DNA of 64,000 nt from an uncultured Acidimicrobiales bacterium (GCA_937922045.1 CAKZXA010000032.1:7710-71709), one strand, 5' to 3'; positions 1 through 60,701 are shown, numbered from the stretch's first letter. The notes: a model not told the origin generated them from the sequence alone. Numbers and translations are program-made.

Positions 1-38
1 AGTGGCGACAGTGTGTTCACCGTCAGAAGTCGGGTCTA

Positions 39-932
39 TCAGGCCGATCCCTCGACGCGTCGCTGAGACCGGTAGACCGCCTGGGCCGCAATAGTTTCCG
101 GTTCAGCGAGGAAGGCTTCAATGTCGGTGTTTCGGGAGGATGGTGTTGCGGCGTCGGTTCGTTGGGCTCTGCCCTGTGCGCCGTCGGAGTGAATCCGGAC
201 GTTGAGAGTGGTGCGATCGATAGCGTTTGCGGCCAGACCCAACCGGTGTTCGAGGTCGGTCAGCACCCGTTCAGAGCTCTCGACAAGATCCTCGTATCGA
301 ACGCTGACCAGACGATGATCGTTGAACGCAGAAAGCTCAAGGGTGTTCTCTCGCCAGAGCTTCAGTGCATCCAAGGTCCACTGGTGTTCCCAATGGTTGT
401 CGGCATCGGCCTCCCACCGAAGAAGCGACCGTACGACATCATCGAGGTCACGGTTGATCACGACTACCTTCGCCTGCGGGAAGAGTCGGAAGAGCCGTTC
501 GATGTCCACCCGTCGATGTCGAACCTCCTTGAATCCCCACCGCTTCGTCGGAACGCCGTTCGGTGCCGTGCCGTAGAGATCGTAAAAGAGGCGACGAAAG
601 GCACCGTCGGTCTGCTCCTGTTGGGGCGAGAGGTTCGCTACGAAGGCGTTGGTGTCCCATCGCTGCCACTCCGAGTGAGCGGACCCATGAAGATGGCCCC
701 AGTCGACCAGAGCCTTATGGGAGGCGAGCAGGGTGGTCGACGCACCGGCGTTTTCTCCCCAGATGAAGACGTCGTCAGCCGAGTTGAGAAGTCGCTGAAC
801 GAGCGTTGACCCGGTTCGGTGTGAGGCTCCAGCGATGAAGATCGGACGCTGATTGAGCTGTCGCCTGGCGAATTGCCGGTTTGCGGCTAGCTGTGTCCTC
901 TGGAGGAGGCTTGGTTCGTTCGAACCTGTCAC
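39..932 (-). CDS. Sulfotransferase family protein (PAPS-dependent type)
   Basis: 297-aa ORF with a GTG start at 932 that overlaps the upstream stop by 4 bp (GTGA). It has a P-loop-like 5'-PSB-type motif (IFIAGASHRTGSTLV) and a 3'-PB-type motif (VVINRDLDDVVRSLL). These are the two PAPS-binding signatures of sulfotransferases. Confidence 0.75.
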   Translation of the reverse strand: MTGSNEPSLLQRTQLAANRQFARRQLNQRPIFIAGASHRTGSTLVQRLLNSADDVFIWGENAGASTTLLASHKALVDWGHLHGSAHSEWQRWDTNAFVANLSPQQEQTDGAFRRLFYDLYGTAPNGVPTKRWGFKEVRHRRVDIERLFRLFPQAKVVVINRDLDDVVRSLLRWEADADNHWEHQWTLDALKLWRENTLELSAFNDHRLVSVRYEDLVESSERVLTDLEHRLGLAANAIDRTTLNVRIHSDGAQGRAQRTDAATPSSRNTDIEAFLAEPETIAAQAVYRSQRRVEGSA

Positions 933-2194
933 TGAAGACTCCAGGCGGAGGAGACAGCGAGAGGGCCAACGTACCGGATGGCTAGATCTTCGGGCAAGGT
1001 GTGTTTGGTTTCTAGCGAGAATTGAACCGCATGTTCCTTTACGTCGAAGTTACTTGATTCGTCGCCGAGCCAGGCCGAGAGCGTGTAGGCCCCGGAGAAC
1101 AGAGGAAGATCGTCGACCTCGAGTCGATAGGTTGCCTCCTGCACCGCGTCGGGCGGTAGGCCGTCGATGGCGCTTCGGTCCGGATGCATCCGCGTATTTG
1201 ATGTGAACACAGGCTGCATGCCACCGGCGTAGACGATGACGCCAGGCACCGCTTGAAACGGGTAGGACGACGAAAAACTGATGTCGACAACAACCCGGCC
1301 ATATTCGAGCTGGGTTGGGTCGATGACCACCCGGGTAATTTGGGGTGTTGGGCGCTCGTCTATCTCATAGTCGACCGTTGTGCTCGAACGGCGGCTGCCG
1401 CGATGGTAGAAGGCGAGGGCATCGTCTACACCGTCGAACATGACCGCCTTGCCGTCGGCGATGACGGCGGCCCGAGTGCACAAGCGTTGAACCAGCGATG
1501 AGTTGTGGCTTACAAAGATGATCGTAGTTCCCTCCGCAGCCAGGCTCGACATCTTGTCGATGCACTTTGCCTGGAAGCGGACGTCGCCGACGGCGAGGAC
1601 TTCGTCGACGGCCAAGATCTCGGTGTTGAGGTGGGCGGCGACGGCGAATCCGAGCCGAACATACATGCCTGAGCTGTAGCGCCGCACCGGGGTGTCGATA
1701 AACATGCCGCAATCGGAGAATTCGATGATTTCGTCGAGTCGGGCTGAGACGTCACGGCGGGTCATCCCCATGATCGTGCCATTGAGGTAGATGTTTTCTC
1801 GGCCCGTCAGCTCGGGATGAAAGCCGGTGCCGACCTCGAGCAAGCTAGCCACTCGACCCTTGGTCAAGATCCGCCCCCGCGTCGGTGTCGTTATGCGCGA
1901 CAGAACCTTCAGCAGGGTTGACTTACCGGCACCGTTCGGCCCGATCAGGCCGACGACGTCGCCGCGGTTGATGGACATGTCGACACCTTGGAGCACCCAG
2001 ACATCACCACGACGTGCCTCCGCAGGCCCCTGGTTGACGACCCCACCGATCGGATCTCCGCGACGGAGCAGACGAGCCCAGCTGCGTCGGACATCGTCAG
2101 CCAGCGTGTTGGAACCAAATTCGCCAAGCTGGTACTTCTTCCAAACATCCTCGACGACGACCATCGTGTCGGCGTTTGATGGTGAGGCGCTCAT
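929..2194 (-). CDS. Polysaccharide/teichoic-acid-type ABC exporter ATP-binding protein (Wzt/TagH-like) with C-terminal extension
   Basis: Walker A GPNGAGKST, signature-like YSSGMYVRLGF and Walker B ILAVDEVLAVGD. About 150 aa follow the NBD (aa ~265-421), as in Wzt proteins that carry a glycan-terminus-binding domain. ATGA overlap with the upstream permease gene. Confidence 0.9.
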   Translation of the reverse strand: MSASPSNADTMVVVEDVWKKYQLGEFGSNTLADDVRRSWARLLRRGDPIGGVVNQGPAEARRGDVWVLQGVDMSINRGDVVGLIGPNGAGKSTLLKVLSRITTPTRGRILTKGRVASLLEVGTGFHPELTGRENIYLNGTIMGMTRRDVSARLDEIIEFSDCGMFIDTPVRRYSSGMYVRLGFAVAAHLNTEILAVDEVLAVGDVRFQAKCIDKMSSLAAEGTTIIFVSHNSSLVQRLCTRAAVIADGKAVMFDGVDDALAFYHRGSRRSSTTVDYEIDERPTPQITRVVIDPTQLEYGRVVVDISFSSSYPFQAVPGVIVYAGGMQPVFTSNTRMHPDRSAIDGLPPDAVQEATYRLEVDDLPLFSGAYTLSAWLGDESSNFDVKEHAVQFSLETKHTLPEDLAIRYVGPLAVSSAWSLQ

Positions 2195-3069
2195 ATGGTG
2201 TCCACGAACTTTCTCTCGACCTGGTTAAAGGCCAGGAGGCCGATAGTGAAGACGACCAGAGAACTCGCCAGTGCGTAGAGTACGCCGCCCGCACTGGTTG
2301 TGCCCGTTCCGAAAAGGGCATGGCGAAAGCCTTCGATGACGTGTGCCACCGGGTTCAGACCTGCGATCGTTCGGTACCGCTCCGGAATGGCGGACAGGGG
2401 ATAGATCACGGGGGTTGCGTACATCAGGAGTTGAACGCCAAAGCCGACGAGATAGGCGAGGTCGCGGTACTTGGCCGTCATGGAGGAGATGGCCATGCCG
2501 ATGCCCAAGGCGGCAGCCGCCATGATCAGCACGAAGAGCGGGAGCAGGAGAAGTTGTGCCTGCACATCGAAGATGGGTTGGCGTAGCTGCATGTAGGCGG
2601 CCACGCTGAGCAGAAGGACGAGCTGAACGGCCAAGGTCAACCCGTTGGAGACGGCGGTCGCTATCGGCACGATCAGGCGAGGAAAATAGACTTTGCCGAA
2701 GAGGTTGGCGTTCTCGCGGAATGTGTTCGACGTCGACGTGAGCGTCGTTGCGAAGTAGGTCCAACAGGTAACCCCGCTCAGGTAGAACAAGACTTGGGGT
2801 ATGCCGTCGGTTGACAAATTGGCGATCTCTCCAAACACGATGGTGAAAATGCCGGTGGTCATGAGAGGTTGGATAATTAGCCAGAGCGGCCCGAGTATTG
2901 TTTGCTTGTAGCGGGCAACGAAGTTTCGCTTCGTCAGCATCGTCACCAAATCCCGGTAGGCAAGAACCTCTCGAATCGGTACGTCGAATGCCCCCCGCCG
3001 TGGGCTGATGACGAGTGTCCAGTCTTCCTCGGTGGTATCCATGTGCCGTGTCAGGATCCGATCTTTCAT
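2191..3069 (-). CDS. ABC-2 type polysaccharide export permease (Wzm/TagG-like)
   Basis: 292-aa multi-TM protein with an ABC-2 permease-like N-terminus (VLAYRDLVTMLTKRNFVARYKQTILGPLWLIIQPL). ATGA overlaps on both sides, with the GT gene upstream and the ATPase gene downstream. Confidence 0.85.
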   Translation of the reverse strand: MKDRILTRHMDTTEEDWTLVISPRRGAFDVPIREVLAYRDLVTMLTKRNFVARYKQTILGPLWLIIQPLMTTGIFTIVFGEIANLSTDGIPQVLFYLSGVTCWTYFATTLTSTSNTFRENANLFGKVYFPRLIVPIATAVSNGLTLAVQLVLLLSVAAYMQLRQPIFDVQAQLLLLPLFVLIMAAAALGIGMAISSMTAKYRDLAYLVGFGVQLLMYATPVIYPLSAIPERYRTIAGLNPVAHVIEGFRHALFGTGTTSAGGVLYALASSLVVFTIGLLAFNQVERKFVDTI

Positions 3070-5594
3070 GTTGGTGTGCCGGCCGAGCGCCTGGTCGCTA
3101 TGTCTTCAGCGAAACGATCGATCAGCCATCGCCGAACCCGCCAGATGGGGCTGGCGACTGCACCCGTCTGGCCCGCGACCGTAGCGAGATGGAGGCCTTC
3201 GTATACCACGCTGAACGCTGAGCCTGACGCCACTTCGCTCGGCGTGCTCGGATCGAGGAGATCGACGGACACGGCCGGGCTTACCGGCTCGGGTCGGTCG
3301 ACGTTGAAAGGGTTGTTCTTGGCTCCGACCGCAGCGGAGGCACCAGCCCAGTAGCTAGCAACGGACAGAACCCGGCCGGACCGCCGTCGTAGCTTTGTCG
3401 ACCTGGTGCGTCGCACAACGCTGGTGATGACAGGCTCCAGGCGTTGAAAGAGCGCTGGCCTCTTGCCAGCGAACTGGGCGACCCGGCGGCTCGTACCGCT
3501 TGCCGGCCACAGTTTTGTATCGATATGAGACGCATAGGAGGGAAACTCTGTCAAGATGAGCGCGTCGCCAAAGCCATCTCGCCAGAAGTCTTTCCTGCTG
3601 CTCGAACGATTTTCGTCACGCTGCACGACGCTGGCCCTTGGGGCGGCGACGACATGAACGCCAGCATCGATGGCTCGAAGGCCAAAGAGCCAGTCTTCCC
3701 GGCGTGGAATCTCAGGAAAGCGGCCGAGTTTGTCGAAAAGGGAACGAGGCAGCGACATATTTCCCGTGCAGACATCGGGGAAGCCCAAGGCGGGCTCAGT
3801 TCGCAGGCGATCGGTGTGATCCACCCACCAGTTGCGCCCCGCCACACCGAAACTACCGACGCCGCGGTGGTCGACCAAGGCTGGTCCGACGACGAGCACG
3901 CGGTCGTCGCCAACGGCCTGTGCTGTTGAACGGTGGGTCAGAAGGTGCTGGGTGGCGAAATCATCGAGCTTGACCATGACATCGTCGTCGAGAAAAAGCA
4001 CATAGTCTTCACGTACGGCTCGTACGCCTGCATTTCGTGCTGCTCCGGCACCACTACCGTGCTCTAGGTCCTTGGAATTTGGGTCGAGCTCGACCACACG
4101 AAGCCGCTCTGAGCCGTCGGCTTTGGCGAGCCGGGTCAGGGTTGCGACGGTGCCGTCGATATCGCCATCGACCGCCACAACGACGGCAGAGACATCAGGC
4201 AATGAGAGGACCCGTTCAGCGAGGGCCACGACCTGCCCACTTCGACCGCGTGTAGGAATGACAACGGCTAGTGAGGGCAGCGGTTCCGAGCTGCTGCGAG
4301 CCGCTGACGATTGGCGGAGCCAGGGTGCTGGCATCTCCCACTGGCGTTGGAGCACAGGAGTGCGCTTTGCGCACATCGCCGCTGAGCGTCGATAGGCCAG
4401 CGGGCTCTTCGCCACGCCCTTGAGCTCGGCCAGAACGAGGTGCCGAGGCAAGGCGCCAGATTTACCAGAGCGATAGTCCGACAGGGTCTGGCGATGCCAC
4501 GTTGCGGTGTTGCGCATCTTGCGTAACGTCGCTTTCCGGTGGCCATCGTGCCAAAGGGTTCGCCAGTTCAGGGCCCAGACCCCGGTGGCATTGCTGGTGA
4601 ACATCTTCACCAGAGATTCGTCATCGTCTCGATGCCAGTGGCGAGCGGTTGACAACGGTTCGTAGGTCACCCGATAGCCCGCATCGAGAACGCGACGATA
4701 CATCCACGTGTCTCCGCCGGTGCCTGTTGGCATCCCGGCATCTAACTCCTCGGGAAAGCCGCCGGCAGCGAGGGCGAACTGTTTGCGAACCGCCATGGCC
4801 GCCCCGACGCCGGGCGTCGACCAATTGCCTGAGGCAGGGCGGTGTTCAGGAAAGAGATGAGGCCCGTTGTAGACGCGAAAGGCAAAGCCGCGGCTATGAG
4901 AGCAAAATTGTTCCGAACGAACCTGGGCCTCGGTCGACAAGGCGGCTGGCAGCACCAGGCCGGCTGTCGCCATCACCAGCGGATCTCGAAAACCATCGAC
5001 AAGCCAACGATCCCAGCCGTGCCGGATCTCGACGTCATCATCGGTGAACAAGACCAAATCGGAGCTGGCCTCGAGCAGGGCTCGATTGCGGGCCCGGTCG
5101 AGGCCCGGGTCGGGTTCGCGCACATAGCGAAAGCCGAACCCTTCGACCGTTGCCTTGATCACCGGGAGATCCTTCCGGCTGTTGTCCACGATGATGACTT
5201 CTTGGCAGAGAGCATCGAGGTTCTTCAGCGAAGCCAGACAGCGCTCAAGCGATTCAGGGCGGTCGGCAGTGCAGACGGCGACGGAATAGGACCCGAGCGA
5301 GCTATCGAACCAAGGCTCGGCGACCGCCGCCTTGGTCAGCTCCGCTCTGGCCAAGCCAACAGGGTGATGTTCGGCGAAGAGATTGCGGACCTTCGGGACA
5401 TCGAGTTGTGGCGTGGTCGGCCCAATGATCAGCGTACCGATGGGAACGTCATGCCACCATCCGGTGACATGGGCAAGGCGATGCTTCAAAGCGATGGTTT
5501 CGGCCGTCGGGCCAACCTGTGGATCGAGGCGAATATCCAACACGTCCATCGGCTCTTGGAGGGCTAGCTCACCAATGGTCTTGGCGATGATCAT
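3066..5594 (-). CDS. Large dual-domain family-2 glycosyltransferase (candidate glycan polymerase of the ABC-dependent route)
   Basis: 842 aa with two GT-A/GT2-like modules. The first has SVAVCTADRPESL ... IIVDNS ... FTDDDV. The second has LAVVIPTRGRSG ... VAVDGDIDGT ... FLDDDVMV. It is the first gene of the coupled GT-wzm-wzt-sulfotransferase operon. Confidence 0.8.
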   Translation of the reverse strand: MIIAKTIGELALQEPMDVLDIRLDPQVGPTAETIALKHRLAHVTGWWHDVPIGTLIIGPTTPQLDVPKVRNLFAEHHPVGLARAELTKAAVAEPWFDSSLGSYSVAVCTADRPESLERCLASLKNLDALCQEVIIVDNSRKDLPVIKATVEGFGFRYVREPDPGLDRARNRALLEASSDLVLFTDDDVEIRHGWDRWLVDGFRDPLVMATAGLVLPAALSTEAQVRSEQFCSHSRGFAFRVYNGPHLFPEHRPASGNWSTPGVGAAMAVRKQFALAAGGFPEELDAGMPTGTGGDTWMYRRVLDAGYRVTYEPLSTARHWHRDDDESLVKMFTSNATGVWALNWRTLWHDGHRKATLRKMRNTATWHRQTLSDYRSGKSGALPRHLVLAELKGVAKSPLAYRRSAAMCAKRTPVLQRQWEMPAPWLRQSSAARSSSEPLPSLAVVIPTRGRSGQVVALAERVLSLPDVSAVVVAVDGDIDGTVATLTRLAKADGSERLRVVELDPNSKDLEHGSGAGAARNAGVRAVREDYVLFLDDDVMVKLDDFATQHLLTHRSTAQAVGDDRVLVVGPALVDHRGVGSFGVAGRNWWVDHTDRLRTEPALGFPDVCTGNMSLPRSLFDKLGRFPEIPRREDWLFGLRAIDAGVHVVAAPRASVVQRDENRSSSRKDFWRDGFGDALILTEFPSYASHIDTKLWPASGTSRRVAQFAGKRPALFQRLEPVITSVVRRTRSTKLRRRSGRVLSVASYWAGASAAVGAKNNPFNVDRPEPVSPAVSVDLLDPSTPSEVASGSAFSVVYEGLHLATVAGQTGAVASPIWRVRRWLIDRFAEDIATRRSAGTPT

Positions 5595-5688
5595 CTGCTG
5601 GATTCCTGCCGCCTCGTGGTTAGGGTTGTCCTATGAACTACGGCCGGAATTCTTGCAAAGCGAATGCACCGGGGATGGCCGCCCTTCA

Positions 5689-6804
5689 ATGATACCGAAG
5701 GAGCAGATGCCGCCCTACCGGCTCGCAGACGTCACAGTCGTTGTTCCGGCCTTTAATGCTGCTAACTACATCGAAAACACGATAGCTAGCGTCTTGGCCC
5801 AGACCGTCGTGCCAGCCGAATTGGTTGTCGTCGACGACGGATCGACCGACGACACCGCTGCGGTGGTCCAGGCAACTTTTGCGTGTCATGAGTCGCACCA
5901 AAGTCGCGTTCGCCTTCTGTCACAAAAAAATTCGGGAGTATGTGTCGCTCGCAATGCGGGATTGGCGGCCGCTAAAGGCCAGGCGGTGATGTTCGTCGAT
6001 GCCGATGATGTCCTGCTTCCCTGGGCGTTGGAGATCATCGACGCCGAGCTGGGGGCCAACCCTGATGCCGGGATGGCGTTTGGCTCGGTGATCTACATCG
6101 ATGAGAACGGGGATATAGCGCAACGGCCCGTTGTCCGCTGGGACCACGATGATTCCTTGTCGACCTGGCTGAACGGAAATAGGGTCCGTTGTGGGAGCGG
6201 AGCTCTGGTTCGCCGGGAGGTGGCTCAGCAGGTCGGGGGGTTCGAGACGTCGATGCGAGAAGCCGAAGGCGAAGCCTTGGCCGATTGGCTCTTCTACCTC
6301 GGTGTTCGACAGCACGGACCGACACGGTATGTGCCAGCACCCACGGTTGGCTACCGCCAGCTGCAGGGCTCGATGTCATCGGACCCGGCAGAGATGCTTG
6401 AAGCCCAAGAGCGCATGTATCAACGGGTGCGAGGTCTCTACGGGATCGACGACGAAGACATGGCATCGAAAGCCATCATCGACCATGGCGCCTACCATCT
6501 CTCAAAGACTTTGTTTGAACGCCGTTGGCGACCAGCGCTTAGTATTCTCGGTCAGCTTGGCCCGCGTCGTGCGCTTCAGGCAGCTCCTCGATTGTTCAGA
6601 TCTAGGCTTTCGCTGTTCTACTGGCGTCGTCTCATAACGAGCGTCGGGAGCTCGGTCGAATCTGTGACAGGTCCCGTTCTGGGGCGCAAACTGGCCAGGA
6701 GCGTTGAGGCCCCGCCAGGGGCGTGGGCAGCTGGCACCTATCCGCTCGCTCTCAACGAGTACGTCGACTTGATGGCCCCCGTGGTAAAGGATCGTTATGG
6801 CTGA
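5689..6804 (+). CDS. Family-2 glycosyltransferase
   Basis: Motifs VTVVVPAFNAANYIENTIASVLAQT, VVVDDGSTDDT and FVDADDV. I trimmed the start of ORF 5383..6804 to the ATG at 5689, because the upstream part overlaps the divergent gene and looks off-frame. Confidence 0.85.
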   Translation: MIPKEQMPPYRLADVTVVVPAFNAANYIENTIASVLAQTVVPAELVVVDDGSTDDTAAVVQATFACHESHQSRVRLLSQKNSGVCVARNAGLAAAKGQAVMFVDADDVLLPWALEIIDAELGANPDAGMAFGSVIYIDENGDIAQRPVVRWDHDDSLSTWLNGNRVRCGSGALVRREVAQQVGGFETSMREAEGEALADWLFYLGVRQHGPTRYVPAPTVGYRQLQGSMSSDPAEMLEAQERMYQRVRGLYGIDDEDMASKAIIDHGAYHLSKTLFERRWRPALSILGQLGPRRALQAAPRLFRSRLSLFYWRRLITSVGSSVESVTGPVLGRKLARSVEAPPGAWAAGTYPLALNEYVDLMAPVVKDRYG

Positions 6805-7768
6805 TGCTGCACTGCCCGACTCGGAACCGACCCGAACGTCGGCCTCGATGTCGTTCTCAATCTGTATTCCTTCCTACAACCGCTCCCAGAAGTTGGAAGC
6901 GCTGCTGGACACGATCGCCCATGAGGTGACCGCTTCGAAGGGGGATGTCACCGTCGAGGTCGTAATCGCTCTCGACGGCTCGACCGATGGTTCCGAAGCC
7001 ATGCTCGAAGCGAAAAAGACCACATATCCTGTGCCGCTGCGATGGCAGTGGCATGAGAATCGAGGGCGCTCGGCCGCTCGAAACACGCTGATCGATGAGG
7101 CCCAGAACGACTTTCTGTGGTTCCTAGATGACGACATGCTACTGGAACCAGGGGTTTTCGATCGGCACCGCCACTGGGATCGCGATGTGGCGCCGGTGAT
7201 GTTTGGTCCGTCCTATGTGATCGGCGGAAACGAGGGGCTCGCCCTTTTCTACGAATATCGCTGGCGAGATCTCGCCGAGCGCGACGCCATCACCGAGGCT
7301 GGCGTTGTCTCCTTCGCCAACACGTCGATGCCAACATCGATCGCCCGCGCTAACCGGTTCGACGAGTCGTTCGTCGGCTACGGGTTTGAAGACTATGAGC
7401 TAGCCCTTCGGATGCTGGCGGCAGGCGTCGGTTTCGGTTTCGATCTCGAGGCCAAGGTGATGCATCACAACGACAAGTCTGGGTTCCAGATGTTGGCGAA
7501 CATCCGCGATGAAGGCCGCAATCGCGTCTTGCTCTCCGACATCCACCCTGAGGCGGGAGCATTCGCTCTGGAGCTACGCGGCGGGCGGCTGGCCCGATTG
7601 CTTCGTCCGATCGCAGACCGTGGCTGGTCGAAGCCCTTGTGGTGGGTAGCCCACGTTGTTCGGGCCGCCGCCCTTCCACTCAAGGGAAAGCGAGCGTTCC
7701 GGGTCATTCGGATCGCCGACGACTTTGCCTTATATAGCGGCCTGGCCTCAGCCAGCCGGGAGAGTTAG
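6797..7768 (+). CDS. Family-2 glycosyltransferase
   Basis: Motifs FSICIPSYNRSQKLEALLDTI, ALDGSTDGS and FLDDDML. The start overlaps the stop of the upstream GT2 by 8 bp. An internal ATG (MSFS...) is an alternative start. Confidence 0.8.
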   Translation: MADAALPDSEPTRTSASMSFSICIPSYNRSQKLEALLDTIAHEVTASKGDVTVEVVIALDGSTDGSEAMLEAKKTTYPVPLRWQWHENRGRSAARNTLIDEAQNDFLWFLDDDMLLEPGVFDRHRHWDRDVAPVMFGPSYVIGGNEGLALFYEYRWRDLAERDAITEAGVVSFANTSMPTSIARANRFDESFVGYGFEDYELALRMLAAGVGFGFDLEAKVMHHNDKSGFQMLANIRDEGRNRVLLSDIHPEAGAFALELRGGRLARLLRPIADRGWSKPLWWVAHVVRAAALPLKGKRAFRVIRIADDFALYSGLASASRES

Positions 7769-7794
7769 CGGCCTGGCCTCAGCCAGCCGGGAGA
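7735..7794. repeat. Perfect 29-bp tandem direct repeat (period 31 bp) at a convergent gene junction
   Basis: tagcggcctggcctcagccagccgggaga occurs at 7735..7763 and again at 7766..7794. Copy 1 encodes the last 10 codons of the + gene. Copy 2 supplies the + gene stop (TAG 7766..7768), and also the last codons and stop (7779..7781) of the - gene. Confidence 0.95.
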
Positions 7795-9002
7795 CGTGAT
7801 CGTGGTTGCATGGCCTCGATAGCGATCTGTGACGTCGTAGAGGCCACGACCGTCCGCTCGTAGCGGCGCCCAAAGAGTTCGTTGGCCGCATGGACGAGAC
7901 GCTGCGCCGTCTCCGGTTCATTGTGGAGACGGAGAATGGCATCGGCCATTCCGGCTGACGAGTCGCTGATAAGAAGATGTTCGTCGTGGCGTACATCGAA
8001 GCCCTGAACCCCGAAGGTTGTGCTGACTAGGGGGATGCGACGCCCCATCGCCTCGAGTACCTTCAGCCTGCTGCCAGCTCCGGAACGGATGGGGGTGGCG
8101 ACCACCGATGCCGAGGCAAAGACCTCATCGAGGTCGTCGGCGAAGCCCAGGTAGCGCACGCCTGGTAGCTGCTCGATGTCGTCCAGCACGGGGCCAGCGC
8201 GTCCAACGAGGACCAGGGTCGCGCCCGGTAGCTGATTTCTGACCAGGGGTAGAACCTCGGTGGCCAACATCTTCGCCGCGTCGGCGTTCGGCTGATAGTG
8301 CAGACCTCCTACGAAAACGATCGTGCAGTTGTCGCTTCGGGCCGCAGGCTGGTGGCGTTCGGAGGGGGCCGGGTAGGCGTTTGGCAGAACGCGAACGTTG
8401 GCCAGGCCTAGATGGTCCCTATCTTCGGCCGAGGTGACCAGGGCCAAGGTGGAGCGGGCAGCGACCCTCAGTTGGTGGGCCCGCCACCGTCGAGCATCGA
8501 GACGAAGGGCGACTCGTTTGGCCGCCGACTTCAGCCGATGTTCGCCCTTGCTGTCGGCGTGCGATTCCTGCTCGAGGAGCAGATCGTAGAGGTCGTCGAA
8601 ATCGACAACGAGCGGTGTCGCCTCGTTGGGGCTTGCATCCAGCGCTGGCCCGACGACGGTGAGCGGTCGAGCTCTGAACACCCAGATGAGATCGAACGGC
8701 GTCGCCAGCAGGGGAGTGGTTTGGTCGATGAGCTCTTCCTTGTTTCGATACAGCGAATCCTTAGGCCGGCGCCAAAGGTGCGCCATCACGTAGCCGAGTC
8801 GAGCCCGGAATTCGTTGGCTCGGATGACGGTCGGTGACGAGTCCGGCCACGTGTCGTCCTTCACGTCGCGGGACAAGAAGAGGGTCTCGACATCGCCGAC
8901 CTGTTCAAGACCCCTGAGCGTTGTTCCTATCCTGAGGCCGTAGCCGGATTTGTTGCCAAGGCAATGATCGGTAACGAACAGAATGCGTGGTCGGGCCGTC
9001 AT
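7779..9002 (-). CDS. Family-4 (GT-B, group 1) glycosyltransferase
   Basis: C-terminal GT-B signature (GSRLKVLEAMGRRIPLVST). N-terminus is MTARPRILFVTDH. I trimmed the start to the ATG at 9002, which forms an ATGA overlap with the upstream gene stop. Confidence 0.85.
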   Translation of the reverse strand: MTARPRILFVTDHCLGNKSGYGLRIGTTLRGLEQVGDVETLFLSRDVKDDTWPDSSPTVIRANEFRARLGYVMAHLWRRPKDSLYRNKEELIDQTTPLLATPFDLIWVFRARPLTVVGPALDASPNEATPLVVDFDDLYDLLLEQESHADSKGEHRLKSAAKRVALRLDARRWRAHQLRVAARSTLALVTSAEDRDHLGLANVRVLPNAYPAPSERHQPAARSDNCTIVFVGGLHYQPNADAAKMLATEVLPLVRNQLPGATLVLVGRAGPVLDDIEQLPGVRYLGFADDLDEVFASASVVATPIRSGAGSRLKVLEAMGRRIPLVSTTFGVQGFDVRHDEHLLISDSSAGMADAILRLHNEPETAQRLVHAANELFGRRYERTVVASTTSQIAIEAMQPRSRLPAG

Positions 9003-10030
9003 TTCGACCGGATGGTTGGCAGGTCTTGGGCTGCTCCGAGAGTGCGATGCTCCACCCAACTAGGGGTCGCGATCGACAAGGCATCTGAGCGTAGACGACC
9101 CGGCCGAACCGCTAGCTTGGTGTAGCCGGCGAGGGTGCCGACGGCACGAGCTGCGGCTAGAAGTCGCGATCGGATACCGCCGGCAGGCACGGTGAGGTGA
9201 TCGGTGCGCAGGCCGATGAGGGATGCGAACTTGAAGGCTGTGTAGCGAGCTGTGTAGCGATGCCATTTCTTCAAGGTTGGACTCTGCATCGCGAGGAGCA
9301 GTGGGCCGGCCTCTGCGAGGCGGTAGTTGAGCCTGAGAAGATACCCAAACCCGAGCCGCGACTCGTCGATGGTGTGGTGGAGACGACAGCCGGGAGCAAA
9401 CCAGACGCCACCGCCGTCGCTCGCCGCCCTGGCTCGGGCCGCCAGCTCGTTGTCGCCGCCGGAGACGAGGCTCTTGCCGCGACGATCGGGTGCCATGGGG
9501 GCATCCAACCAGCCGGAACTGATGACTGCATCCCGTCGCAGGGTGATGCCGGCTCCATGCAGAGATTCACGCTCGGTTTCGACGTCCTCGGCCGGGCCGC
9601 CTGCCGCGAACATCTCGGGATGGATCCACGGTCGCTCCACACCATCGTCCATGTGGAGGACGTTTCTGCCGTTGAATCCAGCAGCGTCCGGACGGTGGGC
9701 GATATAGGCCAGCGCTTCGCTAATCCAGGCCGGCTCAGGAACGCAGTCGTCATCGATGAAAGCCACCCAGGGGGCGTCGGTCGCCCAGAATCCTCGCTGC
9801 CGAGCCTCGGTCAAACCCTGGCGAGTTTCGGCCACGATCCGCAGGCTGGGAAGCCGTTCCATGTAGGAGTTGACGAGCTCGACGGTTCCGTCGGTGCAGT
9901 TATTGTCGATCACCGTCACCGTCCACGAGCCATCATGGGCGGCGCCTTGTATGGCTAGAGCATCCAACGTCTTCACGAGCAGGTGTGCTCTGTTGTAGGT
10001 GCATACAACCACATCGATAAGTGCGTTCAT
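8999..10030 (-). CDS. Family-2 glycosyltransferase
   Basis: Motifs IDVVVCTYNRAHLLVKTLDAL, TVIDNNCTDGT and FIDDDCV. I trimmed the start to the ATG at 10030 (TAATG junction with the upstream gene). Confidence 0.85.
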   Translation of the reverse strand: MNALIDVVVCTYNRAHLLVKTLDALAIQGAAHDGSWTVTVIDNNCTDGTVELVNSYMERLPSLRIVAETRQGLTEARQRGFWATDAPWVAFIDDDCVPEPAWISEALAYIAHRPDAAGFNGRNVLHMDDGVERPWIHPEMFAAGGPAEDVETERESLHGAGITLRRDAVISSGWLDAPMAPDRRGKSLVSGGDNELAARARAASDGGGVWFAPGCRLHHTIDESRLGFGYLLRLNYRLAEAGPLLLAMQSPTLKKWHRYTARYTAFKFASLIGLRTDHLTVPAGGIRSRLLAAARAVGTLAGYTKLAVRPGRLRSDALSIATPSWVEHRTLGAAQDLPTIRSK

Positions 10031-11175
10031 TATCGCCGTACCGTTTCGAGTGCGCGCGCCTTGGCCGAGGCTACGAGTTCGTTGGAGCCGCCGCGGAGAA
10101 TCCGACCCCGCGGGTTCTGCCACATCGAATGATAGAGATCGGCCATGGCGGTATCAGTAAAGGACAAGGCGATCTGGCGGCCAGCTTCTCCGATCCGATG
10201 AGCGAGAGCCGGCTCCTCGAGAAGAGCCTTGATCGCAGGAGCAAAGCCGGATAGGTCTTCGCCCTCCATGATGAATCCAGTTTCACCGTCGGTGACGGCG
10301 TCACGAACGCTGCCGACAGCACTGACCACAACGGGAACACCGAGGAGCATCGCCTCGACCATGGCGAGAGGGAATGCCTCGTTTCGCGATGGCAGGACAA
10401 AGGCGTCGAAGCCAGCTACCAGGCTGGTCGGGTCGTCCTGCCATCCTAGGAAATGAACGCGATCGTCCACGCCCAGACTCCGAGCGGACTGGGTGAGGGC
10501 TGACCGTTTTGATCCATCCCCGATGAGGACGAGATGTGCGCCTTGTTCAAGGCTGGCGAAGACCGGTAAGAGACGATCGAGACCTTTCTGGTCTTCGAGG
10601 CGTCCTACGAATCCGAGCACAGGGTCATCGGCTAGTTGGGGGACGAGCGCTCGCAAGACGTCCGGACTGGTCTGGACAGGAACGGGAACGCCGTTGTGGA
10701 TCGTGCGAACCGACCCTTTCGGCAGTCGGAAATATTCTTCGACGGCATCGGAACTTTCAGACCCGACCGAGACGTGGTCGTGGAGTAGCCGCGACACGGC
10801 GTGCTTGACCAGTATCTCCCGAGGGGTCAGACGGCGAACCAGCTGCTCGACGGCGATGGTTGGAATGCCCAGCGAAATCGCAGCGATCTGTGGTGCTAGG
10901 GCCGCTCCAGGATTGCAGAGTGTGACCTGGAGGAGGTCAGGCCGATGGCGCGTAAACAGGGTACGGAATCCTCGAATCTCTGCTGCCATGTTCGACGTTG
11001 GGCCCTCGATCAACTCGACGTCGCACGAGACGCGTTTTGCCAGCTCGTCGACGGCCACGCAGGGGCGGCCTAGGAGCACGAAGTCGACCTTGTCCCCGGT
11101 GGCGGCCACGAGGTTCGCGACCGATTGCTCAGCCCCGCCATAGCCATCTCCGTCGACGCAGAGCCCGATGATCAC
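10030..11175 (-). CDS. Family-4 (group 1) glycosyltransferase
   Basis: The GT-B core has VIIGLCVDGDGYGGAEQSV at the N-terminus and a C-terminal EAFPLAMVEAMLLGVPVV motif. The proposed GTG start at 11175 forms a GTGA overlap with the Wzy-like gene stop. The upstream 311 aa of the 693-aa ORF are Arg/Pro-rich read-through. Confidence 0.85.
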   Translation of the reverse strand: MIIGLCVDGDGYGGAEQSVANLVAATGDKVDFVLLGRPCVAVDELAKRVSCDVELIEGPTSNMAAEIRGFRTLFTRHRPDLLQVTLCNPGAALAPQIAAISLGIPTIAVEQLVRRLTPREILVKHAVSRLLHDHVSVGSESSDAVEEYFRLPKGSVRTIHNGVPVPVQTSPDVLRALVPQLADDPVLGFVGRLEDQKGLDRLLPVFASLEQGAHLVLIGDGSKRSALTQSARSLGVDDRVHFLGWQDDPTSLVAGFDAFVLPSRNEAFPLAMVEAMLLGVPVVVSAVGSVRDAVTDGETGFIMEGEDLSGFAPAIKALLEEPALAHRIGEAGRQIALSFTDTAMADLYHSMWQNPRGRILRGGSNELVASAKARALETVRR

Positions 11176-12371
11176 ACGTGAGCCGTTCGATTGAGTGACT
11201 GGCCCTCGTAGGAGTCGCGCTGTCGGGAAGCCTCGGTGGCCTCCTTCAAAAGGCCACACGAAAACCACCAGAGCCAACCGACGAGAGTCCCTGACGCGAA
11301 CCCGATAGCGATGGCAAGAATGAGAGACGGAGGACTTCGCCGGAGCCAGGCCCAAAGAATGCTGAGCAGCGTGGTCAAACCCAACAGCCCGAACTCGGCC
11401 AGGGTGTTTGCGAAGATGTTCCACGAACCGCCTGAGCTGAGAATACGAGGATCCAACAAGGTGAGTTCGCCTTGACGTTGAATGTCGGCCAACCGAATGG
11501 CGTAGTTCCCCGGGCCAACACCGGTAACGATGTTGTCCTCGGCGAGCCGGATGCCGGCTTGCCAGCTGCCGACGAGGCGGCCCGAGCTCGAGGCATCCTG
11601 TTGGGCCCCGCCTCCGGTGGTTTCGACCAGGCGTTGCGCCACGCGGTCCTCGAAGACCTGACCGACTGCGGGGATGGTCAGTACTGCGAGGGCGAACACC
11701 ATGACACCTGCGACAGCGGCCCCGATCATCCGGGGCTTGATCACACCACGTTTGACCGAGAAGACACCGCACATCAAGAGGGCGAGTGCTATGCCCGAGA
11801 GCGAGGCTGCCAGAGCCAACAACACAGCGCCAATGGCAAGGTCCGAACGTCGCAGTTGGCGATGAAGGTAGAAATACGACAAGACGACAACGACGAAGAT
11901 CGCAAGCGTTGAGGGTTCGCTGAACAGGGCCTGCGTTCGAGGGAATGAAGACCTGTCCCACCTGCCCGCCTGATAGGCCCGCAGGACTGGTGACGTCATA
12001 CCGAGCCGGTGGGCGGTCTGCTGGGCCAACGACATGGCAAGGTTGATCGAAAGGAGTATGCGAAGTATGCGAATGAACTCTGTAGAGCCAAAGTCGCGAA
12101 TGTAGTTCCACATGCAGAGCAGACCGGACCAGTAAAGGCTCATCTTTGCGAAGAAGAGGATCGATTCGACGGGGCTTGAAAGGCTGTTGCTCATGCTCAT
12201 CAAGGCACTTAGCCCGGCCGCAGCGAAGAAGACGCCGAGAGAGCGCATTCCTTTAGGGATCACGAGGCCTCGTCCGGTGGATCCGATGAACCAGAGGCCG
12301 ACCCCGAGCGCCAACAGAAGGTCGCCGGTGACCAGGACGGCAGGACCGATCAGCCGGCGCGACGCAAACAC
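11172..12371 (-). CDS. O-antigen polymerase/ligase family membrane protein (Wzy-like)
   Basis: 399 aa with about 10 hydrophobic segments and a large loop (RLVGSWQAGIRLAEDNIVTGVGPGNYA). This matches the O-antigen ligase/Wzy_C family pattern. Confidence 0.7.
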   Translation of the reverse strand: MFASRRLIGPAVLVTGDLLLALGVGLWFIGSTGRGLVIPKGMRSLGVFFAAAGLSALMSMSNSLSSPVESILFFAKMSLYWSGLLCMWNYIRDFGSTEFIRILRILLSINLAMSLAQQTAHRLGMTSPVLRAYQAGRWDRSSFPRTQALFSEPSTLAIFVVVVLSYFYLHRQLRRSDLAIGAVLLALAASLSGIALALLMCGVFSVKRGVIKPRMIGAAVAGVMVFALAVLTIPAVGQVFEDRVAQRLVETTGGGAQQDASSSGRLVGSWQAGIRLAEDNIVTGVGPGNYAIRLADIQRQGELTLLDPRILSSGGSWNIFANTLAEFGLLGLTTLLSILWAWLRRSPPSLILAIAIGFASGTLVGWLWWFSCGLLKEATEASRQRDSYEGQSLNRTAHV

Positions 12372-14860: not shown

Positions 14861-15901
14861 CTATCCGCCGCTGGTGGCTTCAGCTGCTGAAACCCCTGTT
14901 GCAAGGGTTCGCTTGACGGCAGCGATTGCCTCCTGTGCCGCCTCTGAAGTGTTGGTGTTCAGTCGTGACCGAAGCCGCGATCTGTAGGGGGCAATGGCAG
15001 CAAGGCAGGCCATGGGAAACGATAGTGATCCTGGACTGTTCCAGGCGTGACTTAGGGCCGAGCGATAGTTTCCGGTACGCCACAATCGTTGGGTCACCCA
15101 ACCGTCTACCGGTTCGAACCGAGGTGCTGGTTGAGCTTCTCGCTGGGCTGTGTGCTTTGAGCGGATCAGCCCGAGCTCGTTGTTGATCTTGCTCATGTCC
15201 ATGCTCATCTGCTCGGCGTGGTGAACGTAGAGGGTGCCGTAATCTGGCCAGACCGCCGGGGTATCGACTTCGGCGCATCGGATCCAAAGGTCCCAATCTG
15301 CAAACATCGAAAAGCGAGGATCGAAATAGCCAACCTCGTCGAGGAGTGCCTTCTCGACGACTACGGTTGAGCAACCTCCGGGTATCCGGTTCCCGATCAG
15401 TAGTCGCGTTCGAAAGTCTTCGGTCGGGGCCGCCCCGTTGTGGTAGAGGAAACGAAGGTTGTCGGAGACAACCGCTGCGTAGCAATAGGACCAGCGGCTT
15501 CCGTTGTCCTTCATCGCGGCAACCTGGCCGCTGATCTTTCCAGCTGACCAGAAGTCGTCGTCGTCGCAGACTGCAATCCATCTACCGGTCGCAACGTCGA
15601 TGGCCCTATTGCGGGCCGTCGCAACTCCCTGAGCTTGTTCGCTTCTCACGACCTTCACCCGAGGATCGTTGATCGAGGCAACGACGTCCGCGGTGTCATC
15701 GGACGATCCATCATCGCTCACGATGATCTCAAGATCTGGATAATCCTGAGCACGAACTGTCAGCAGTGTCCGCAACATGCGGTCACGCCGATTATGGGTT
15801 GGAATCACCACAGAGCAGGTCTGATTCATGTCCTGCCTCGTTTCACATCCATTGATACAAATCGGATCGTATACGGGATCTCGTCGCAAGATAAACCGCA
15901 T
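14861..15901 (-). CDS. Family-2 glycosyltransferase
   Basis: Motifs CSVVIPTHNRRDRMLRTLLTV, IIVSDDGSSDDT and VCDDDDF. It is the first gene of the minus-strand operon running 15901 to 7779. Confidence 0.85.
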   Translation of the reverse strand: MRFILRRDPVYDPICINGCETRQDMNQTCSVVIPTHNRRDRMLRTLLTVRAQDYPDLEIIVSDDGSSDDTADVVASINDPRVKVVRSEQAQGVATARNRAIDVATGRWIAVCDDDDFWSAGKISGQVAAMKDNGSRWSYCYAAVVSDNLRFLYHNGAAPTEDFRTRLLIGNRIPGGCSTVVVEKALLDEVGYFDPRFSMFADWDLWIRCAEVDTPAVWPDYGTLYVHHAEQMSMDMSKINNELGLIRSKHTAQREAQPAPRFEPVDGWVTQRLWRTGNYRSALSHAWNSPGSLSFPMACLAAIAPYRSRLRSRLNTNTSEAAQEAIAAVKRTLATGVSAAEATSGG

Positions 15902-16300
15902 CCAGCACTACGCGCGTTGGCCGTCTGCATTCGCCACTCCTAGCTTGGACAGCCAGGATAACTTCTTCGCTGCTCCCCGCAACGCCCTCGTCGCGGTCCG
16001 ATCGGCCAAACGGCTCATCGGGTGAGGTCGAACTACTCGGTCCCACCGGTCAAGATGGCCTGTATCGACCGAGCAACGCCGAGTCATCCGGCCAATCCAA
16101 CCCCGACGCCCGTTTTGGGTGTGTGTTTGCCGGATACGCTGTCGGAATCGGTCCTGAGGTTTCACGAGCGCTTGCTGCAGCGGTGACGCAAGATCGAGTT
16201 AAGGGCGGCGGCGGAAACGAAGAAGAGATTTCTGGACATGTGTCTAGAGTCCGGCTTGGCATCCGTCTTGTCGGCACCAGGTAGTCGAGGAGTCAGTTAC

Positions 16301-22992: not shown

Positions 22993-23024
22993 CGAAATGA
23001 CCGAACATTCGGTGTAGCAGCGGT

Positions 23025-26104: not shown

Positions 26105-26293
26105 GCCGTAAGCCTAGTGGGGCCACACACGAGCCCAGCCCGCCACCCTCCGTGGGTCGATTGGCTCAGATTCGCGTGCCTGATGCCCAGATCACTCCAT
26201 CGGGAGCGCGATCTTGCCGAAATGGAAGAACGCGTGACGGCCTTCGCTAGATAGCCACCGTCACATCACAAAGACCTGCCACGAGGGAAAGCC

Positions 26294-27790: not shown

Positions 27791-27837
27791 TAACCTGAAT
27801 CGGGCCTCCGGTTCGGACCTCTGGTTCGACGCTGACG

Positions 27838-28311: not shown

Positions 28312-28422
28312 GCGATGGTTACGTGTGTTTCTGGGTTGGATGCCGCCCGTGGCGTGGAGCGAGGCCGAGAGGCGGATATCTCCTCGACCCAAGCCCAGGC
28401 TAGCGGGCGCTAGAATCGGACC

Positions 28423-30564: not shown

Positions 30565-30578
30565 CCAGCCGCCTCCAG

Positions 30579-35610: not shown

Positions 35611-35797
35611 AGGCCATGGCTCGGGCGACACCGACGATGCGCCGTCTTCTCGGACTTCATGGACGCACCGTCGACACCGCCGATCTTCCCGATGATTGTG
35701 CAGAAGTGCCCGAAGTCCCTCGAAGCGGTGCAGCTCGAACCGACGCCGGTCATTCGAGCGGCAACTAGCAGTGGTTGGGCCGGGGCGTGACCAGAAC

Positions 35798-60695: not shown

Positions 60696-60701
60696 TTGAA
60701 A

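Follow-up and report, generated by a model that had tools for sequence, protein, structure and literature searches.

A sulfotransferase gene coupled to a Wzm/Wzt exporter operon in an uncultured actinobacterium: a candidate sulfated or sulfate-capped surface glycan

The window, a 64,000-nucleotide stretch of DNA from an uncultured, monoderm, Acidimicrobiales-like actinobacterium, carries four minus-strand open reading frames (39..932, 929..2194, 2191..3069 and 3066..5594) that form an operon spanning 39..5594. Consecutive genes are chained by 4-bp start/stop overlaps (ATGA at 3066..3069, ATGA at 2191..2194 and GTGA at 929..932), as an earlier note on this DNA had reported. The gene identities proposed there (a dual-GT2 protein, an ABC-2 permease, an ABC ATPase and a protein with PAPS-binding signatures) also held: Pfam matches and intact motifs identified a polymerase-like protein with two GT2 domains, Wzm, Wzt and, as the operon's final gene, a PF13469 sulfotransferase whose PAPS motifs are intact.

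39..932, minus strand: PAPS-dependent sulfotransferase, 297 aa, PF13469 (Pfam, conserved motifs, AF2 fold)
929..2194, minus strand: Wzt ABC ATPase, nucleotide-binding domain (NBD) at residues about 60-260 plus C-terminal tail (ABC_tran, PDB matches)
932..1411, minus strand: predicted C-terminal carbohydrate-binding module (CBM) of Wzt, residues 262-421, a rare sequence type (AF2 and Foldseek; sub-cutoff Wzt_C)
2191..3069, minus strand: Wzm, ABC-2 permease (ABC2_membrane, PF01061, E 9.5e-24)
3066..5594, minus strand: two-module GT2 protein, 842 aa, candidate polymerase for a two-linkage repeat (Pfam, DDD motifs)

Four-base overlaps are commonplace in high-GC operons, and evidential weight was therefore placed on overlap conservation and gene order together. 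An orthologous cassette, its genes arranged in identical order with the same three types of overlap, was found in an Acidimicrobiales MAG (OZ244195.1, called L007 here) at identities of 66% for Wzt, 66% for Wzm, 50% for the two-GT2 protein and 44% for the sulfotransferase, indicating that the four-gene arrangement is not a chance juxtaposition. The best explanation is that the operon encodes the polymerase, exporter and tailoring core of a surface-glycan pathway that depends on an ABC transporter.

The sulfotransferase matched Sulfotransfer_3 in Pfam with an E value of 6e-21 and 76.1 bits against a cutoff of 27, in agreement with the earlier assignment. The gene begins at a GTG that shares bases with the stop codon of wzt, and GGAG lies 9 nt upstream. 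Both PAPS motifs (the 5'-phosphosulfate loop and the 3'-phosphate motif) and the catalytic columns are kept across relatives and align with the TPST motifs; R39, G41, T43, E60, K135, R161 and S169 are invariant columns across 50 relatives. Profile matches in the PDB were the TPST and CurM sulfotransferases. The AF2 model (pLDDT 92.2) has the sulfotransferase alpha/beta fold, and its top Foldseek matches were nearly all PAPS sulfotransferases (TPST1/2, the OLS and CurM sulfotransferases, Stf1, Stf9, Stf0 and HS 3-OST), tyrosylprotein and polyketide sulfotransferases being the nearest solved structures. The family is not glycan-specific, since 56 of 80 relatives have no GT2 or GT4 gene inside 6 kb. 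Most relatives do not adjoin wzt, and the wording 'hard-wired', by which the earlier note had described the link to the exporter, was overstated.

In Wzt, ABC_tran (PF00005) matched at 1.7e-19, and the best PDB sequence matches were A. aeolicus Wzt (6amx/6oih and 7k2t; E about 1e-59), followed by TarH/TagH and mycobacterial RfbE; the NCBIfam models of teichoic-acid and galactan exporter ATPases all matched below cutoff. The NBD ends near residue 260, leaving a 160-aa tail. The AF2 model of this tail (pLDDT 89.3, pTM 0.86) is all-beta, and its best Foldseek matches (8dky, 2r5o, 6o14, 8dne and 7k2t; TM 0.45-0.58) are solved Wzt carbohydrate-binding domains. As modelled, the tail is a Wzt-type carbohydrate-binding beta-sandwich, the fold with which the earlier note had proposed to compare it, while the Wzt_C match (residues 305-395, E 6e-6, 26.7 bits) stayed under the 30.4-bit Pfam cutoff. 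Relatives of the tail numbered 73 at E<=1e-3 among 1.84 billion representatives. Identity of the tail is 56% and 53% to those of two clade-mates and does not exceed 38% to the remaining full-length Wzt tails; over the same comparison the NBD stays at 50-59%, a divergence that fits a changed ligand. This clade has three members, two with the sulfotransferase link and a third on a 2 kb contig without visible context. H264, R265, R300, R357, H388, K397 and R407 are basic residues conserved specifically in the clade; the tail as a whole is acidic (net charge -9).

For Wzm, the NCBIfam models of galactan Wzm/RfbD and KpsM matched below their cutoffs (KpsM with 68 against 300 bits). This ABC-2 permease is paired with a Wzt/TagH-type ATPase, the arrangement of Wzm/Wzt export. 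The GT2 domains of the two-GT2 protein span approximately residues 104-330 and 440-672, with both DDD motifs intact; the motifs are kept in the L007 ortholog (50-52% identity), and each half also matches the two-GT2 proteins of ~875 aa that lie upstream of wzm, wzt and a sulfotransferase gene in two further loci, L033 and L040.

The operon belongs to a wider cluster with about ten GT domains in total (gene calls across 5707..10030 were taken from L001).

5707..6804, plus strand: GT2 (Pfam)
6797..7768, plus strand: GT2 (Pfam)
7779..9002, minus strand: GT4 (Pfam)
8999..10030, minus strand: GT2 (Pfam)
10030..11175, minus strand: GT4 glycosyltransferase (Glycos_transf_1, 2e-38)
11172..12371, minus strand: Wzy_C-domain membrane protein (Wzy_C, 38.3 bits against a 31.7 cutoff)
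12490..14850, minus strand: 786-aa protein, C-terminal half GT4-like, 450-aa N-terminal half without assignment (Pfam)
14861..15901, minus strand: GT2 (Pfam)
16238..17308, plus strand: GT2 (Pfam)
17413..19086, plus strand: Bac_transf (WbaP-type) polyprenyl-phosphate sugar-1-phosphate transferase, predicted initiating enzyme (PF02397, 5.9e-56)
19067..20380, plus strand: UDP-glucose/GDP-mannose dehydrogenase family enzyme (Pfam)
20429..21460, plus strand: NAD-dependent epimerase/dehydratase (Pfam)
21457..22992, minus strand: SulP-family sulfate permease, at the cluster edge (Sulfate_transp, 7e-73)

Each of the four GT genes in 5707..10030 has an L007 ortholog (47-68% identity), two pairs being fused in L007, and the GT4 protein of 10030..11175 matches the N-terminal half of a 764-aa GT4-GT2 fusion of L007 (47% identity). 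With an initiating phosphoglycosyl transferase and a multi-module polymerase both encoded, the domain content points to cytoplasmic lipid-linked assembly. The dehydrogenase and the epimerase/dehydratase would serve precursor supply and suggest a uronic-acid-containing glycan, and SulP is a possible source of sulfate for PAPS. The Wzy_C protein, by analogy with WsaB and WaaL (PMC2943079), is a candidate ligase or oligosaccharyltransferase moving the exported glycan to its final acceptor. The only non-GT tailoring enzyme of the cluster is the sulfotransferase.

The L007 cluster encodes three sulfotransferases; the one coupled to wzt is alone in having a conserved counterpart in the window, its GTGA overlap retained. 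Two Verrucomicrobiota carry a similar module of two-GT2 protein, Wzm, CBM-bearing Wzt and sulfotransferase; in a compact Haloferula module (GT2, two-GT2, Wzm, Wzt-CBM, sulfotransferase) the sulfotransferase is the last gene and, here too, the only non-GT tailoring enzyme. Sulfotransferases of at least two lineages were recruited beside wzt in different phyla. In all eight informative members of the Wzt clade the gene directly after wzt encodes a small group-transferase (L090-L093 have a methyltransferase there, L009 and the P0141 contig a hexapeptide acetyltransferase, and the window and L007 a sulfotransferase), which fits the earlier suggestion that the sulfotransferase holds the terminator's position. 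The hexapeptide acetyltransferases may act on nucleotide sugars instead of in capping, and the similarity of the Wzt tails did not track the class of enzyme in this slot beyond overall relatedness. In L025 (Chloroflexota) a sulfotransferase gene overlaps that of a 248-aa Wzt without a CBM, so cap reading is not a precondition for coupling to wzt. Coiled-coil rulers were sought with a crude heptad and Pro/Gly-free scan, which detected none among the cluster proteins of the window, L007, L033, L040 and L024; the window's sulfotransferase does have a 79-aa Pro/Gly-free run, but it falls within the catalytic domain and is not kept in L007.

The glycan is probably sulfated by this enzyme at some position. 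The reading we favour, with somewhat less than even confidence, is that a terminal sulfate ends elongation and is read by the Wzt CBM for export. Judging from domain content, the Bac_transf enzyme would prime polyprenyl phosphate, single-module GTs would build an adaptor, and the two-GT2 protein would polymerise a two-linkage repeat at the cytoplasmic face. The sulfotransferase would then use PAPS to O-sulfate the non-reducing terminal sugar; because PAPS is cytoplasmic, sulfation must precede export. The terminal sulfate would halt elongation, the CBM would bind the sulfate epitope and admit the chain to Wzm/Wzt, and the Wzy_C protein would transfer the glycan to an acceptor outside the membrane. 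The analysis established the gene order, the overlaps with their conservation, the fold and cofactor motifs of the sulfotransferase, and the CBM fold; we infer a glycan acceptor, a terminal sulfate and its recognition by the CBM.

Cap reading draws on the position of the gene, since the terminator follows wzt in the prototypes (in E. coli O9a, wbdD comes directly after wzt) and the slot is occupied by a small group-transferase throughout the informative relatives. In Geobacillus the terminator gene wsaE overlaps wzt (PMC2943079), and every characterised Wzt CBM, the type to which the modelled tail would belong, binds a terminal cap and is itself required for export (PMC9445017, PMC11231755). 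The sulfotransferase's standing as sole non-GT tailoring enzyme in the window cluster and in Haloferula, the selective conservation of the wzt-coupled enzyme in L007, the cohesion of the tail within its clade compared with outside, the recruitment of separate sulfotransferase lineages and the flanking SulP permease also argue for it. Against it speak the result of the ruler scan, known chain terminators consistently carrying a coiled-coil ruler (PMC11231755), the CBM-less Wzt of L025, and the wider sulfotransferase family, most of it away from GT2/GT4 genes and with one member (L041, the closest to that of L040) that has no wzt nearby. The negative charge of the tail, its failure to track the slot enzyme, the uncertain role of the slot acetyltransferases and the lack of PAPS-synthesis genes in the window and its 10 kb flank weigh on the same side. 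The same is true of Aeromonas salmonicida, in whose O-antigen no sulfate was found despite a sulfotransferase-domain gene adjoining wzt (PMC4483657), and of the structurally characterised sulfated bacterial capsules, which carry sulfate on every repeat (PMC11766843).

A serious if doubtful contender is that the sulfotransferase modifies an internal position of each or many repeats, yielding a polyanionic glycan in which sulfate is a decoration and the CBM reads another terminal sugar or the backbone. Sulfation of every repeat, ABC export and a sulfate permease in the cluster are combined in the known sulfated bacterial polysaccharides (PMC11766843; PMC11641403), and in Cobetia marina the permease belongs to the sulfation block (PMC11766843). 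Three sulfotransferases in L007 suggest heavy sulfation, the UDP-glucose dehydrogenase points to a polymer that is already acidic, and any of the GT domains could add a capping sugar, as WbbB adds Kdo; the L025 pairing and the missing coiled-coil terminator fit as well. Sulfation of repeats leaves unexplained, however, why only the wzt-coupled sulfotransferase is common to both Acidimicrobiales clusters, why the post-wzt slot consistently holds a small group-transferase and why the sulfotransferase is the last gene of the minimal Haloferula polymerase-exporter module.

It is unlikely that sulfate is placed elsewhere on the lipid-linked intermediate (the adaptor or reducing-end region, for instance), or that the enzyme has a different acceptor altogether, such as a protein tyrosine, a glycolipid or a small molecule; with a different acceptor, co-transcription with the exporter would be purely regulatory. 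The nearest solved relatives and the distribution of the family outside GT-rich neighbourhoods would suit such a role, as would the P0004 homolog, which is surrounded by unrelated genes; but gene order and the start/stop overlap that joins the gene to wzt persist at 44-66% protein identity, the module recurs in Verrucomicrobiota, and the closest homologs outside the clade, P0003 and P0006, lie in GT/methyltransferase glycan clusters. That the enzyme is inactive or lacks its cofactor in a genome making no PAPS, the gene then being a relic or serving some non-catalytic function, is very improbable: cysC, cysN, cysD and cysQ were not found in the 64 kb window or 10 kb flank and PAPS-synthesis genes were not found near L033 or L025, but PAPS genes are usually unlinked to client enzymes and this region is <15% of the 608 kb contig, the cofactor and catalytic columns are all invariant, the model is confident, an ortholog is retained in a second genome and a sulfate permease adjoins.

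The earlier interpretation is partly supported: the feasible checks suggested there, on the sulfotransferase match and on the fold of the Wzt tail, turned out in favour of it, and its sulfate cap, terminating or export-licensing, is something that we infer. We put forward, tentatively, that this is an undescribed sulfate cap, set by a ruler-less stand-alone sulfotransferase and read by a rare clade of Wzt CBMs, and that the slot after wzt may hold swappable cap chemistry (methyl, possibly acetyl, sulfate), filled independently in Acidimicrobiales and Verrucomicrobiota. If true, sulfate would be a previously undescribed chain-terminating, export-licensing cap.

The prototype for this comparison is E. 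coli O9a/O8 (equivalent to K. pneumoniae O3/O5; WbdA, WbdD, Wzm/Wzt-CBM). Common to both are a multi-GT-module polymerase, an ABC-2 exporter whose ATPase ends in a beta-sandwich CBM (with 2R5O one of the best structural matches), a group-transferase encoded immediately downstream of wzt and, as proposed here, completion of the glycan in the cytoplasm before export (PMC11231755, PMC9445017). The window differs in having a sulfotransferase instead of a kinase/methyltransferase, no detected coiled-coil ruler, a GT2 instead of a GT4 polymerase, Bac_transf instead of WecA initiation, a tail only about 14% identical to 2R5O and under the Pfam Wzt_C cutoff, and a monoderm actinobacterial host, so that the product is not LPS. 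A. aeolicus WzmWzt (8DKY, 7K2T, 8DNE) provides the best NBD sequence match and, with 8DKY, the best structural match of the tail. Its cap, 3-O-methyl-mannose/rhamnose, is likewise a small substituent on a terminal sugar read by the carbohydrate-binding domain; the methyl group sits in a hydrophobic pocket (PMC9445017), whereas sulfate would need polar or basic ligands.

The sulfated capsules of the marine Gammaproteobacteria Cobetia marina KMM 1449 and Vibrio sp. KMM 8419 share with the window one or more sulfotransferase genes, an ABC exporter and a sulfate permease in one glycan cluster (PMC11766843, PMC11641403). Their machinery is of the KpsMT(ED)/KpsSC group-3 kind and lacks a CBM, and cysNC, cysD and cysQ belong to the clusters, whereas the window has Wzm/Wzt with a CBM and no linked PAPS genes; a Pfam scan of window ORFs of 180 aa or more found no Kps accessory genes (KpsE/D, KpsS/C) and no cys genes. 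In the A. salmonicida O-antigen cluster, a sulfotransferase-domain ORF directly follows a long Wzt (438 aa) and precedes wbbB (PMC4483657), but this ORF is only 216 aa long, compared with 297 aa in the window. By homology to K. pneumoniae WbbB, A. salmonicida WbbB would be a putative Kdo-type terminator, and the locus is an unexplained precedent rather than support.

The S-layer glycan cluster (slg) of Geobacillus stearothermophilus NRS 2004/3a (WsaP, Wzm/Wzt, WsaE, WsaB) is compared here by its glycan-pathway genes. There the cap methyltransferase domain is fused to two GT domains, whereas the window has a free-standing sulfotransferase and encodes its two-GT protein upstream of wzm. Both hosts are monoderm, and both clusters have a WbaP-type initiating transferase alongside the ABC exporter and a Wzy_C-domain transferase for the last step (PMC2943079). 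In slg, wzm, wzt and the next gene, which encodes the cap-forming transferase, overlap (PMC2943079), an arrangement matched in the window. With the sulfotransferase assumed to be cap-forming, the slg-type gene set (WbaP-type initiator, Wzm/Wzt, wzt-overlapping transferase and Wzy_C protein) is present in the window in full.

The operon under study comprises four genes on the minus strand of the window:

39..932, minus strand: sulfotransferase (ST), 297 aa; Pfam Sulfotransfer_3, E 6e-21, 76 bits against a cutoff of 27
929..2194, minus strand: ABC ATPase Wzt, 421 aa; ABC_tran, and Wzt_C over residues 305-395 at 26.7 bits, below the cutoff of 30.4
2191..3069, minus strand: permease Wzm, 292 aa; Pfam ABC2_membrane
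3066..5594, minus strand: two-GT2 protein, 842 aa; two family 2 glycosyltransferase (GT2) domains by Pfam

Read on the reverse complement, both upstream junctions are ATGA and the wzt/ST junction is GTGA, and the GTG start of the ST has a GGAG 9 nt ahead. Open reading frames, junction bases and Pfam matches all agree with the earlier note, which had correctly described four genes of these types chained by start/stop overlaps. According to NCBIfam, the ATPase and the permease are nearest to teichoic-acid, galactan and Kps exporters, with every match below the equivalog cutoff. A promoter and terminator scan of window positions 1..6000 gave no signal above chance level. The window comes from a 608 kb contig of the metagenome assembly ENA ERZ6863697. 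The ST is followed by a convergent aldehyde dehydrogenase gene and is the final gene of a glycan cluster that, by Pfam annotation, extends upstream of the operon to about 21.5 kb. The following features were annotated in the cluster and next to it:

upstream of the operon: five more single-module GT2/GT4 genes (Pfam)
11172..12371: Wzy_C-domain membrane protein (Pfam)
12490..14850, minus strand: 786-aa protein with a GT4-like C-terminal half; the N-terminal 450 aa match no Pfam family
in the cluster upstream of the operon: two additional GT2 genes (Pfam)
17413..19086: Bac_transf initiating transferase (Pfam)
in the cluster: UDP-glucose dehydrogenase-family enzyme and epimerase/dehydratase (Pfam)
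21457-24008, minus strand: SulP sulfate permease (21457..22992) and EamA-family transporter, between the glycan cluster and the menaquinone genes

The scan of window ORFs of at least 180 aa revealed no Wzx-type flippase. Menaquinone, purine and housekeeping genes occupy the remainder of the window. The menaquinone-biosynthesis neighborhood (24100-36800) contains genes resembling MenF, MenD, MenB, MenE, MenC and MenH together with a TauD-family dioxygenase (29710..30564) and a 2OG-Fe(II) oxygenase (35696..36799), and a protein with a weakly matching GH16-family glycoside hydrolase domain (55751-56767, minus strand, E 3.7e-7) lies amid the purine and housekeeping genes. A TPP riboswitch (RF00059, 60.2 bits; 60587-60711, plus strand) directly precedes genes for a solute-binding protein (60696..61940) and an ABC permease (61838..63601); the three probably form a thiamine-uptake operon. 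Taken together, the closest related locus (on OZ244195.1, described below), a mycothiol-type Rv2466c-like gene and a G+C content of 61.5% make it likely that the host is a monoderm, Acidimicrobiales-like actinobacterium.

The enzyme class of the ST is secure. Its best homologs outside its clade share only 37-40% identity, and R39, G41, T43, E60, K135, R161 and S169 do not vary in either of two alignments, one of 13 relatives and one of 50; they lie in the 5'-phosphosulfate loop, in the 3'-phosphate motif (R-x7-S) and at catalytic positions. A family profile searched against the PDB matched tyrosylprotein sulfotransferases, the CurM and OLS polyketide sulfotransferases and cytosolic SULTs, with alignments spanning the PAPS motifs. 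The AlphaFold model is confident (pLDDT 92.2, pTM 0.88), and its structural neighbors are nearly all PAPS sulfotransferases, including mycobacterial Stf0, Stf1 and Stf9 and heparan-sulfate 3-OSTs. The sulfotransferase assignment of the earlier note thus stands on both the Pfam match and the invariant PAPS motifs; the acceptor cannot be read from homology. In the AF2 model, a basic N-terminal helix (residues 9-26, LLQRTQLAANRQFARRQL) is predicted ahead of the catalytic domain, and the N-terminus of the closest ortholog is likewise basic; the helix could be a membrane- or partner-contact element. With regard to sulfate supply, cysC, cysN, cysD and cysQ were not found within the 64 kb window, nor were PAPS genes found near the analogous cassettes of a Haloferula sp. 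(L033) and a Chloroflexota MAG (L025). The SulP permease may feed sulfation.

The nucleotide-binding domain (NBD) of Wzt, which matches A. aeolicus Wzt (E about 1e-59), extends to about residue 260 and leaves a 160-aa tail. Searched alone, the tail gave no meaningful PDB sequence match and no match in a word-index protein search, and its fold was therefore taken from a predicted model. An exhaustive HMMER search returned just 73 relatives among 1.84 billion cluster representatives; the full-length relatives are about 400-430 aa long, with the match at their C-terminus. The tail-only AlphaFold model, built from 38 sequences, is all-beta (pLDDT 89.3, pTM 0.86), and its best PDB matches are the carbohydrate-binding domain of A. 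aeolicus Wzt with and without 3-O-methyl-mannose (8DKY, 6O14) and E. coli O9a Wzt-C (2R5O), followed by full-length transporter structures, at probability 1.00 and TM 0.45-0.58. The predicted fold is therefore the carbohydrate-binding module (CBM) that the earlier note had expected. Two clade-mates, P0118 and P0119, are 56% and 53% identical to the window protein in the tail, and no other full-length Wzt exceeds 38% there; NBD identity holds at 50-59%. Seven basic residues are conserved specifically in the clade; they are candidate sulfate ligands, which we take as a lead only.

For the Wzt proteins that rank next in tail similarity (29-35% identity), the neighborhoods were surveyed for the gene directly after wzt. 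Four loci (L090, L091, L092 and L093) have a SAM methyltransferase gene there, and two, L009 and the P0141 contig, have a gene for a hexapeptide acetyltransferase; one further contig (L008) stops at wzt. Counting the window and its closest relative, a small group-transferase directly follows wzt in all eight informative loci, a small sample. The wzm, wzt and wsaE genes of G. stearothermophilus overlap, and the 2-O-methyl cap is formed by a domain of WsaE (PMC2943079). The pattern of genes after wzt is the strongest new support for the ST as a putative cap enzyme, with the reservation that the acetyltransferases in the slot may act on nucleotide sugars instead of the glycan terminus.

The closest related locus is L007 (also numbered L059), from OZ244195.1, a complete chromosome of 5.39 Mb that bears the label Acidimicrobiales bacterium. 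L007 encodes the two-GT2 protein (844 aa), Wzm, Wzt and ST in the same order and with overlaps identical in type (ATGA, ATGA, GTGA), at identities to the window of 50%, 66%, 66% and 44%, respectively. Most of the remaining glycosyltransferases of the cluster have orthologs there (47-68% identity), and two pairs are fused: the GT2 pair 5707..6804 and 6797..7768 corresponds to a single 677-aa protein, and GT4 10030..11175 with GT2 8999..10030 to a single 764-aa protein (L007 4440-6473 and 14233-16527), indicating fusion or fission between orthologous clusters. The 786-aa protein has no counterpart in the fetched part of the L007 cluster. Two extra Sulfotransfer_3 genes in L007 (12151-13035 and 17937-18920, both minus strand) are without window orthologs, which suggests heavier or different glycan sulfation in that organism; the only ST common to both loci is the wzt-coupled one. 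Metagenome scans with a three-sequence tail alignment and with a two-GT2 alignment yielded no relatives, and the exact cassette is therefore rare.

To place the ST in its family, its alignment was scanned against one genome per species, which gave 80 loci. Actinomycetota supply most of these, chiefly Mycobacterium, Nocardia, Acrocarpospora, Jatrophihabitans and genera like them. In 56 of the loci no GT2/GT4 homolog lies within 6 kb, so the family overall is not dedicated to glycans; relatives lacking GT2/GT4 or wzm/wzt neighbors probably use different acceptors. Both wzm and wzt lie within 10 kb of the ST in 6 of the 80. Among the linked loci, Haloferula sp. and a Verrucomicrobiia MAG (L040) encode a two-GT2 protein (~875 aa) resembling the window's in both halves, then Wzm, a Wzt with a Wzt_C match above cutoff, and ST; unrelated housekeeping genes directly follow the Haloferula module. 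The order in an Actinomycetota MAG (L024) is a 1246-aa glycosyltransferase, Wzm, Wzt-CBM, GT2 and ST, and in the Chloroflexota MAG the ST overlaps a 248-aa Wzt that has no tail. The STs of the window and L007 sit on a long branch of their own in a distance tree, those of L024, L025, L033 and L040 are loosely grouped elsewhere, and L041, the closest relative of the L040 ST, has no wzt nearby. The ST-wzt link therefore has more than one origin and is labile, and "hard-wired", as the earlier note put it, describes the window/L007 clade but not the ST family.

That the ST sulfates the glycan somewhere is probable. Where on the chain is a finer question, for which we tentatively prefer a cap, at somewhat less than even odds: the ST would use cytoplasmic PAPS to sulfate the non-reducing end of the lipid-linked polymer, the terminal sulfate would stop elongation, and the Wzt CBM would read the sulfate before export. 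Known caps are methyl, (methyl)phosphate and Kdo (PMC9445017). The main rival, sulfation of the repeat unit with the CBM reading something else, is only slightly less likely. It draws on the Cobetia marina capsule, which bears sulfate on every repeat and is encoded in a cluster with cysNC, cysD, cysQ and a sulfate permease (PMC11766843), and on the Chloroflexota locus, where ST and wzt are coupled without a CBM; the slot pattern favors the cap. Two properties of the tail would count against a sulfate cap as judged from sequence: its net charge is -9 despite the clade-specific basic residues, and, with relatedness taken into account, its similarity appears unrelated to the class of slot enzyme (tail/NBD identity ratio 0.60 within and 0.57 between classes, the NBD serving as control). 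No protein of the window, L007, L033, L040 and L024 modules showed a coiled-coil candidate in a crude scan for heptads and Pro/Gly-free stretches; a coiled-coil terminator is one of the features that define the capped subtype. In A. salmonicida, wzt is followed by a sulfotransferase-domain ORF and wbbB, and sulfate was not seen in the O-antigen (PMC4483657). We rejected an LPS O-antigen (the host appears monoderm), RaxST-like peptide sulfation and export (Wzm/Wzt is an ABC-2 glycan exporter inside a glycosyltransferase cluster) and a sulfomenaquinone link (translational coupling ties the ST to wzt, and >20 kb separate it from the men genes).

Textbooks describe ABC-transporter-dependent glycan export with cap-gated quality control, and a handful of cap chemistries are known for it. 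The sulfate-cap prediction is specific and testable but derives from gene position in uncultured organisms; if true, sulfate would be a new, strongly anionic cap chemistry, the CBM would recognize sulfated sugars and might serve as a reagent, and capping would work without a coiled-coil ruler, which bears on how chain length is set. Under the conservative reading, a cell-surface glycan bearing sulfate is still predicted for Acidimicrobiales, abundant and mostly uncultured actinobacteria about whose envelope chemistry, to our knowledge, next to nothing is known; sulfated bacterial polysaccharides are of interest as biomaterials. Mann, Kimber and Whitfield reportedly compiled a census of terminator chemistries in 2019 (Glycobiology 29:822), which may list sulfotransferase-type candidates and lay outside the literature searched. 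In that literature no sulfate cap is described, sulfotransferases and Wzt are seldom mentioned together and, that census aside, sulfotransferase chemistry in the terminator slot appears to be undescribed.

The locus belongs to the Wzm/Wzt-CBM glycan export systems. Its correspondence with the O9a and A. aeolicus systems lies at the exporter. With the Geobacillus slg pathway its parts correspond one-to-one (PMC2943079): both have a WbaP-type initiator, adaptor glycosyltransferases, a multi-module polymerase, a wzt-coupled transferase, Wzm/Wzt and a Wzy_C transferase.
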